5,804 nucleotides of DNA from a virus (lineage: Duplodnaviria > Heunggongvirae > Uroviricota > Caudoviricetes). This document shows positions 593 through 640 of this stretch, piece by piece (position 1 is the stretch's first letter; every line of letters starts with the position of its first letter). The stretch is taken from the IMG/VR virus record IMGVR_UViG_2698536355_000005. One strand, given 5' to 3'. The notes beneath the pieces were generated by a model, which saw only the letters and a program-made list of their open reading frames with translations, did not search any database and had not been told where the DNA came from. Both the position numbers and the translations under genes were made by a program.

Positions 593-640
593 ATTTCTAT
601 TTCTATTTCTATTTCTATTTCTATTTCTATTTCTATTTCT
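593..640. repeat. Perfect hexanucleotide tandem repeat (ATTTCT)x8, with degenerate T-rich copies on both flanks
   Basis: Directly visible: eight uninterrupted ATTTCT units at 593-640. It produces the artefactual FLFLFL run in track ORF 534..779. Confidence 0.95.

Follow-up and report, generated by a model that had tools for sequence, protein, structure and literature searches.

The hexanucleotide array (ATTTCT)8 of a lambdoid prophage and the MLVA locus O157-9 of Escherichia coli O157:H7

The window considered here, a stretch of phage-derived DNA of 5,804 nucleotides, carries at positions 593-640 an uninterrupted array of eight ATTTCT units which, judged by its sequence, is the published MLVA tandem-repeat marker O157-9, also designated VNTR-9, Vhec4 or TR1, and the finding is in this respect already known. 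Very probably, the array represents a hexanucleotide VNTR that is hypermutable, selectively neutral and located in junk prophage DNA. Public-health laboratories fingerprint Shiga-toxin E. coli with this locus, which already ranks among the more discriminating markers for the typing of outbreaks of Escherichia coli O157:H7, where it is in routine use, and this role is left unchanged by the present analysis. The additions consist of a putative origin of the array from codons of an IS3-family transposase, an account of non-amplification that involves the insertion sequence IS30, the occurrence of the locus in double copy in strain 472, a variable poly-T tract, and an open reading frame (ORF) whose annotation is triggered by the length of the array. 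The identity of the locus, its length polymorphism among strains and its pseudogene context were established here, whereas the mutation rate and the single-unit size of the mutational steps are taken from the literature.

The array and its correspondence to O157-9

Read on the plus strand, the eight units are bordered by GTGGTCTGTTTTAAT on the left side and by GTTTGTTGTGGTTTTTTCTT on the right side. Tandem Repeats Finder delimits a repeat of period 6 at 592-644 (8.8 copies, 97% matches, score 99), and carries the array in this way into a degenerate terminal unit, GTTTGT (641-646), which is replaced by ATTTGT in the other haplotype of the right flank. A probe made of four units finds five overlapping matches in the window and none in 200 dinucleotide-preserving shuffles, and the perfect (ATTTCT)8 repeat described by an earlier note on this DNA is thus borne out by the sequence itself, by the repeat finder and by the shuffles. 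A poly-T tract, T6 in the window, follows at 652-657, 12 bp to the right of the array. Runs of at least six ATTTCT units are rare: among 185,579 species, the representative genomes contain 96 such stretches, to which Escherichia contributes none, and the exact 34-mer of the right flank was not found in the species-representative genome set. A literature search on the hexamer itself gave unrelated papers only. The minus strand of the array reads (AGAAAT)8 and, in the old frame of the transposase to be discussed below, (GAAATA)n, which corresponds to (Glu-Ile)n. The strand of the array is devoid of self-complementarity, with a fold of 0 kcal/mol, and searches for tRNAs and for Rfam families retrieved neither a tRNA nor a family.

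The correspondence to O157-9 relies on the primers and on the DNA they delimit. The forward primer GCGCTGGTTTAGCCATCGCCTTCTTCC of O157-9/VNTR-9, given for this locus in PMC3321953 (Table A1), PMC8461963 and PMC10062581 (Table S5), matches the window exactly at 828-854 on the minus strand, where it overlaps the start of the gene for an HNH endonuclease and is directed towards the array that it flanks; it is the only one among 36 published MLVA primers (Table S5 of PMC10062581) to match the window. The reverse primer GTGTCAGGTGAGCTACAGCCCGCTTACGCTC does not match the window, even when up to three mismatches are allowed, and is found many times in IMG/VR, sometimes several times per contig. In three loci of the O157 type (L039, L048 and L057), both primers bracket the same array and the same right flank as in the window, to give in-silico amplicons of 538 bp with 11 units, 526 bp with 9 units and 520 bp with 8 units, respectively, all of them containing GTGGTCTGTTTTAAT(ATTTCT)n and the right flank of the window up to the forward primer. 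These sizes of 520-538 bp fall inside the published range of 474-614 bp. The published locus has been described as a unit of 6 bp repeated 6-23 times, with 15 alleles, a diversity index of 0.90 and a proportion of null alleles of 31.7% (PMC3321953, Table 1), and published tables place O157-9 'inside ORF Z3935/Z3936' of the EDL933 annotation. The locus forms part of the O157:H7 schemes of Lindstedt 2003, Noller 2003, Keys 2005, Hyytia-Trees 2006 and Izumiya 2010 (cited in PMC3768571, PMC3321953 and PMC10062581).

On the left side, the organization found in O157:H7 departs from that of the window. The O157:H7 DNA matches the window with 97-98% identity from position 578 onwards, and adjoins there a truncated IS30, the junction (577/578, 15 bp left of the array) reading ...AATCTACA immediately followed by GTGGTCTGTTTTAAT. 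The left 245 bp of the O157-9 amplicon, which are annotated as IS30 in O157:H7 genomes, carry the reverse primer. Each O157 genome contains three to five places matching IS30, the copy that adjoins the array being truncated, and the IS30-flanked loci of the O157:H7 type comprise, besides the three loci amplified in silico, a fourth one (L071). Both the left part of the IS3-family fragment and the gene of 590 amino acids (aa) described below are missing from O157:H7. In the O157:H7 strain TW14359, the locus lies at 3.549 Mb, a position that we believe to be compatible with the EDL933 ORFs Z3935/Z3936, within a degraded prophage where integrases and a few unrelated genes are followed by the truncated IS30, the array, the HNH endonuclease, NinG, the phosphatase and Q. 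The window itself contains no IS30. Since the reverse primer sits in IS30, which is absent from the window, a null allele is expected for the window in the standard PCR, even though the window contains the same genetic locus as O157-9. The multi-copy IS30 holding the reverse primer adjoins the array only in O157:H7, which accounts for non-amplification in window-like strains. A literature search associating IS30, MLVA and O157 returned nothing relevant on the position of the reverse primer in IS30.

The prophage setting and the transposase remnant that hosts the array

Shiga-toxin E. coli of types O26 and O111, e.g., strain 97-3250, carry DNA identical to positions 105-1000 of the window. The RefSeq annotation of this identical DNA corresponds to a lambdoid prophage with a cI-like repressor, cro, cII, O, P, ren, ninB, a methyltransferase and ninE, followed by the 590-aa gene on the opposite strand, by a 562-bp gap that includes the array, and then by the HNH endonuclease, NinG, a Ser/Thr phosphatase and the Q antiterminator. 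The HNH endonuclease gene (839-1405, plus strand) is the nearest gene on the right side of the array and its RefSeq coding sequence starts at 839, 199 bp past the array, in agreement with the distance of about 200 bp upstream of the endonuclease start given by the earlier note. Its product contains an HNH_3 domain together with a DNA-binding match of the AP2-like kind that remains sub-threshold (Pfam/PHROGs), a combination that resembles homing-endonuclease-like phage proteins. An imperfect 20-bp tandem duplication (857-897, two copies, 80% match) occupies the first HNH codons and is identical in 38 of the 38 loci fetched for comparison.

To the left of the array and divergent from the HNH gene, the window retains the 5' end (105-276, the first 172 bp, minus strand) of the 590-aa gene (WP_000612805.1, phrog_9230), which is interrupted by the end of an IS1 element (1-104) showing 100% matches to annotated IS1/IS1B transposase. 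The junction with IS1 at position 105 was not found in any of 5,426 complete E. coli genomes, in which the matches start at 105. In related prophages, the 590-aa gene is intact (e.g., 6400-8172 on the minus strand of locus L001) and occupies an antisense position in the nin region, flanked by ninE and by the HNH gene. The protein WP_000612805.1 has no match in Pfam, NCBIfam or PADLOC and its sole assignment is to phrog_9230, a family of unknown function. Immediately upstream of the gene, the DNA (277-439) contains 27% G+C and, judging from its position and composition, the 590-aa gene looks like a moron or a defence-type insertion.

At the other end of the window, three ORFs follow Q in the interval 3685-5804, a region which in Stx phages is the site of stx. 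One ORF of 252 aa, with a high content of hydrophobic residues, belongs to phrog_1521, of unknown function. Another, of 52 aa (4529-4687), is the counterpart of a gene annotated as DUF3927 in related prophages, and the sequence from 4985 onward is the initial part of an esterase of the SASA/DUF6645 type.

The array is embedded in an internal fragment, about 360 bp in length, of an IS3-family (ISEc52-like) transposase pseudogene, located on the minus strand at 440-800 with approximate boundaries and recognized by tblastn, NCBIfam and DNA alignment. The fragment extends from the helix-turn-helix end of OrfA through the coiled-coil region and the former frameshift site into OrfB, of which it includes some 35 initial codons. 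When searched by tblastn against plasmids, it retrieves the ISEc52 IS3-family transposase with 60% identity and E values of 1e-16 to 1e-17, in two pieces belonging to two frames, as is expected across a programmed frameshift. The NCBIfam profile NF033516 (transpos_IS3) is matched with an E value of 1e-7 over positions 26-126 of 369, and the score of 31.6 bits lies below the family cut-off of 160 bits, as expected for a mere fragment, while Pfam returned nothing at E <= 1 for the conceptual minus-strand translation. Aligned with the DNA of ISEc52, the fragment shows 70% identity over 330 columns.

The minus-strand translation of the region (approximately 440-800) reads ...MDVGISTIPRWRK*LHDKPQGKGKTLPPIIQKQIEIHELKKKPQQT(EI)8LKQTTTFLMS..., where (EI)8 stands for the array, and its -1 frame reads LIERYRVDTLCYVFGVQCNIYKYWKN. 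An in-frame stop occurs in the fragment (K*LHDK, to be compared with KQLRDE in ISEc52) and the slippery A6G sequence has become AAAACAG. The fragment possesses neither the N-terminus, nor the catalytic domain, nor the ends of a transposase element; about 100 codons are recognisable and the alignment stops on both sides. It is a dead remnant of the IS3 family and not an element. The apparently non-coding, degenerate DNA described around the repeat in the earlier note, which also saw in the repeat a possible product of relaxed selection, turns out to be this pseudogenised transposase fragment.

At the place of the array, ISEc52 reads ACT GAA ATG GAA AAT GAA ATA TTA AAA AAG GCT (T-E-M-E-N-E-I-L-K-K-A), and the counterpart in the window reads ACA (GAA ATA)8 TTA AAA CAG ACC. 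From this comparison, which involves a single relative of about 70% DNA identity that is not the true parent element, we infer that the array results from the expansion of GAAATG-GAAAAT-GAAATA (E-M-E-N-E-I), codons of the OrfA coiled coil situated just 5' of the frameshift site. The three imperfect units would have been homogenised and expanded. With six codons of a defunct transposase of the IS3 family as its source, the array would represent a microsatellite born from decaying coding DNA.

Length variation and its interpretation

Of the 5,426 complete E. coli genomes, 525 contain the region 441-860 of the window, in 245 cases with the native left flank. A separate search of the complete genomes found the IS30-type flank in 281, so that, with a total of 525, at least one genome must possess both kinds of flank. 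The O157 strain 472 (NZ_CP018245.1) contains the locus twice, at 3217331-3217768 with the native flank and 11 units and at 3531471-3532014 with the IS30 flank and 12 units, and the positions suggest that the two copies belong to two different prophages.

In the complete genomes, the lengths of the matching places differ by multiples of 6, corresponding to 5-23 units. The 38 fetched loci contain 4-23 units, and nine of their arrays include units altered by point mutation (ATTTCC, ACTTCT, GTTTCT or AATTCT). Depending on the haplotype of the right flank, the units range in these 38 loci from 4 to 23 (G-type) or from 5 to 16 (A-type), and wide ranges in both haplotypes imply that length change has recurred many times. 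O157:H7 loci provided with the IS30 flank still display 5-22 units. The comparison of copy number across strains that the earlier note called for is accordingly positive, and its view of a slippage-prone microsatellite agrees with the 4-23 units of related loci; its reading of the repeat and of slippage stands, and what went unrecognised is the identity with the published O157-9/VNTR-9/Vhec4/TR1.

The poly-T tract at 652-657 also varies, with T5, T6 and T7 versions among those of the 38 loci that have the A-type right flank. Such a variation shifts the frame of anything read through the region and, located beside the array, can put MLVA fragment sizes off the 6-bp ladder. Four similarly named bovine O157:H7 isolates of near-identical genome sizes, Z1830-Z1833, contain 21, 22, 21 and 21 units, respectively, counts which would be consistent with a recent single-unit change if the isolates are closely related.

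Serial passage of O157:H7 has yielded for Vhec4 a rate of 4.3-4.6e-5 mutations per generation and per strain, the recorded changes consisting of two single-unit insertions and one point mutation, which were ascribed by the authors to slipped-strand mispairing (PMC3777172). In the proposed mechanism, slippage of this kind during replication would add or remove whole 6-bp units and, since the array has a fold of 0 kcal/mol and no self-complementarity, a simple misalignment of units suffices to explain the changes. The host of the array would be the transposase pseudogene fragment of about 360 bp that separates the antisense 590-aa gene from the HNH/NinG/phosphatase/Q genes in the nin region of the lambdoid prophage. 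Neutrality, like the proto-repeat origin, is deduced rather than observed; it is read from the absence of evidence for a function, and the promoter scan that contributes to it was limited to the sigma-70 consensus.

Among the other readings, the one that survives best, improbable as it is, considers the array as a contingency locus of the phase or rheostat type, where the number of units would alter the spacing of a promoter or regulator relative to HNH/NinG/Q or to the 590-aa gene, or else the stability of an (AUUUCU)n transcript, with cell-to-cell variation in prophage gene expression as its corollary. In other bacteria, expression is modulated by repeats that precede promoters, an example being the TAAA tract of nadA in Neisseria, and the present array is both hypermutable and situated, at 199 bp from the start of the HNH gene, within the 562 bp that separate divergent genes. 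However, the scan for the sigma-70 consensus detected no sigma-70-like promoter on either strand of the interval 200-900, where 2.6 are expected from shuffles; a single weak terminator-like hairpin, at 695-711, is not regarded as meaningful. The allele lengths, spread over 4-23 units, give no sign of two preferred states. The genes to be regulated fare no better, as the 590-aa gene has already been destroyed by IS1 in the window and, in O157:H7, where the prophage is degraded, the truncated IS30 stands in place of the entire left side including this gene, and the array nevertheless continues to vary between 5 and 22 units. The surrounding DNA, in addition, is a decayed transposase fragment. 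In the absence of a promoter-like site, of a strand structure and of a conserved reading frame, nothing supports phase variation, and the effect on spacing that the earlier note had cautiously envisaged finds no support, given the lack of promoter-like sites in 200-900 and the persistence of length variation after the replacement of the left side by IS30. Still less credit can be given to the more specific proposal that the number of units tunes the expression of HNH-NinG-phosphatase-Q, perhaps through the stability of a U-rich (AUUUCU)n transcript or through antitermination, a proposal which no result of the analysis supports; if it were true, a marker used for typing would at the same time act as a rheostat for the readiness of the prophage late genes.

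A coding function has an even smaller probability. It would make the array a length-variable repeat of a real small protein, encoded on the plus strand as (FL)n in the ORF 534-779, as (IS)n in the ORF 524-688, for which RefSeq has an annotation in long alleles, or as part of Z3935/Z3936. Both plus-strand ORFs do run through the array and a unit of 6 bp leaves any frame open, the earlier note having been right that such a unit cannot shift a reading frame. The literature, moreover, lists O157-9 as 'inside ORF', and PGAP annotates a hypothetical protein across the array in some genomes but, among the genomes listed, only when the array comprises at least 11 units and never with 10 units or fewer (with 23 units, the ORF at 3420-3674 of locus L002 reaches 84 aa). 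The annotation thus follows the length of the ORF instead of a gene signal, and the 'ORF' across the array is a by-product of array length. The 81-aa product of 534-779 belongs to no PHROG family, the adjacent poly-T tract breaks the frames 3' of the array by its variation from T5 to T7, and the IS30 junction at 577/578 removes the starts of both ORFs in O157:H7. The sole detectable protein homology is that of the transposase on the opposite strand, with its stop codon and its change of frame.

Simple repeats are error-prone in some assemblies, yet the idea of an array collapsed or expanded by assembly or sequencing retains practically no probability and has already been refuted by hundreds of complete genomes and contigs of IMG/VR that carry the same array with its flanks, by the agreement of independent assemblies (8 units twice for 97-3250, 11 units in three assemblies of 86-24), and by published work in which PCR fragment sizing and sequencing of the locus are routine. 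An iteron, an origin or a protein-binding array was also considered and dropped; the copy number is unconstrained (4-23), the units decay by point mutation, and descent from transposase codons explains the sequence. The reading retained is that of a neutral VNTR in junk prophage DNA.

Comparison with known repeat systems

The contingency loci of Neisseria, Haemophilus and Helicobacter share with the array the same mutational mechanism, slippage in a short tandem repeat. These loci comprise either a unit whose length is not a multiple of three, placed inside a gene, or a tract located in or near a defined promoter, and their expression switches. The present array, in contrast, has a 6-bp unit, no detectable promoter-like site, a pseudogene as host and no known effect on expression; of the features that define a contingency locus, the hypermutable short repeat is present, and a placement altering a frame, a promoter or an operator was not found.

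With respect to its host DNA, the window resembles ISEc52 and the IS3 family, to which some 360 bp around the array are homologous over the end of OrfA and the start of OrfB, and differs from ISEc52 by the presence of (GAAATA)8 where the latter has one copy of GAAATGGAAAATGAAATA.

Other VNTRs of EHEC, namely O157-3, O157-10, O157-17, O157-19, O157-25 and O157-37, are likewise built from 6-bp units and change by whole units, passage experiments giving rates of some 1e-5 to 1e-3 per generation; O157-10 mutates about ten times faster. Both their loci and their sequences are different, and their primers have no match in the window.

The closest counterpart remains O157-9 itself. The window differs from it by a non-O157 context of the O26/O111 type, without IS30 beside the array and without the reverse-primer site, its left flank consisting, unlike that of O157:H7, of the rest of the IS3-family fragment and of the 590-aa gene cut by IS1. 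The 6-bp unit, the 15-bp left anchor GTGGTCTGTTTTAAT, the right flank and the forward-primer site at the HNH start are the same in both, and their allele ranges are comparable, with 6-23 repeats published for O157-9 and 4-23 in the loci studied here.
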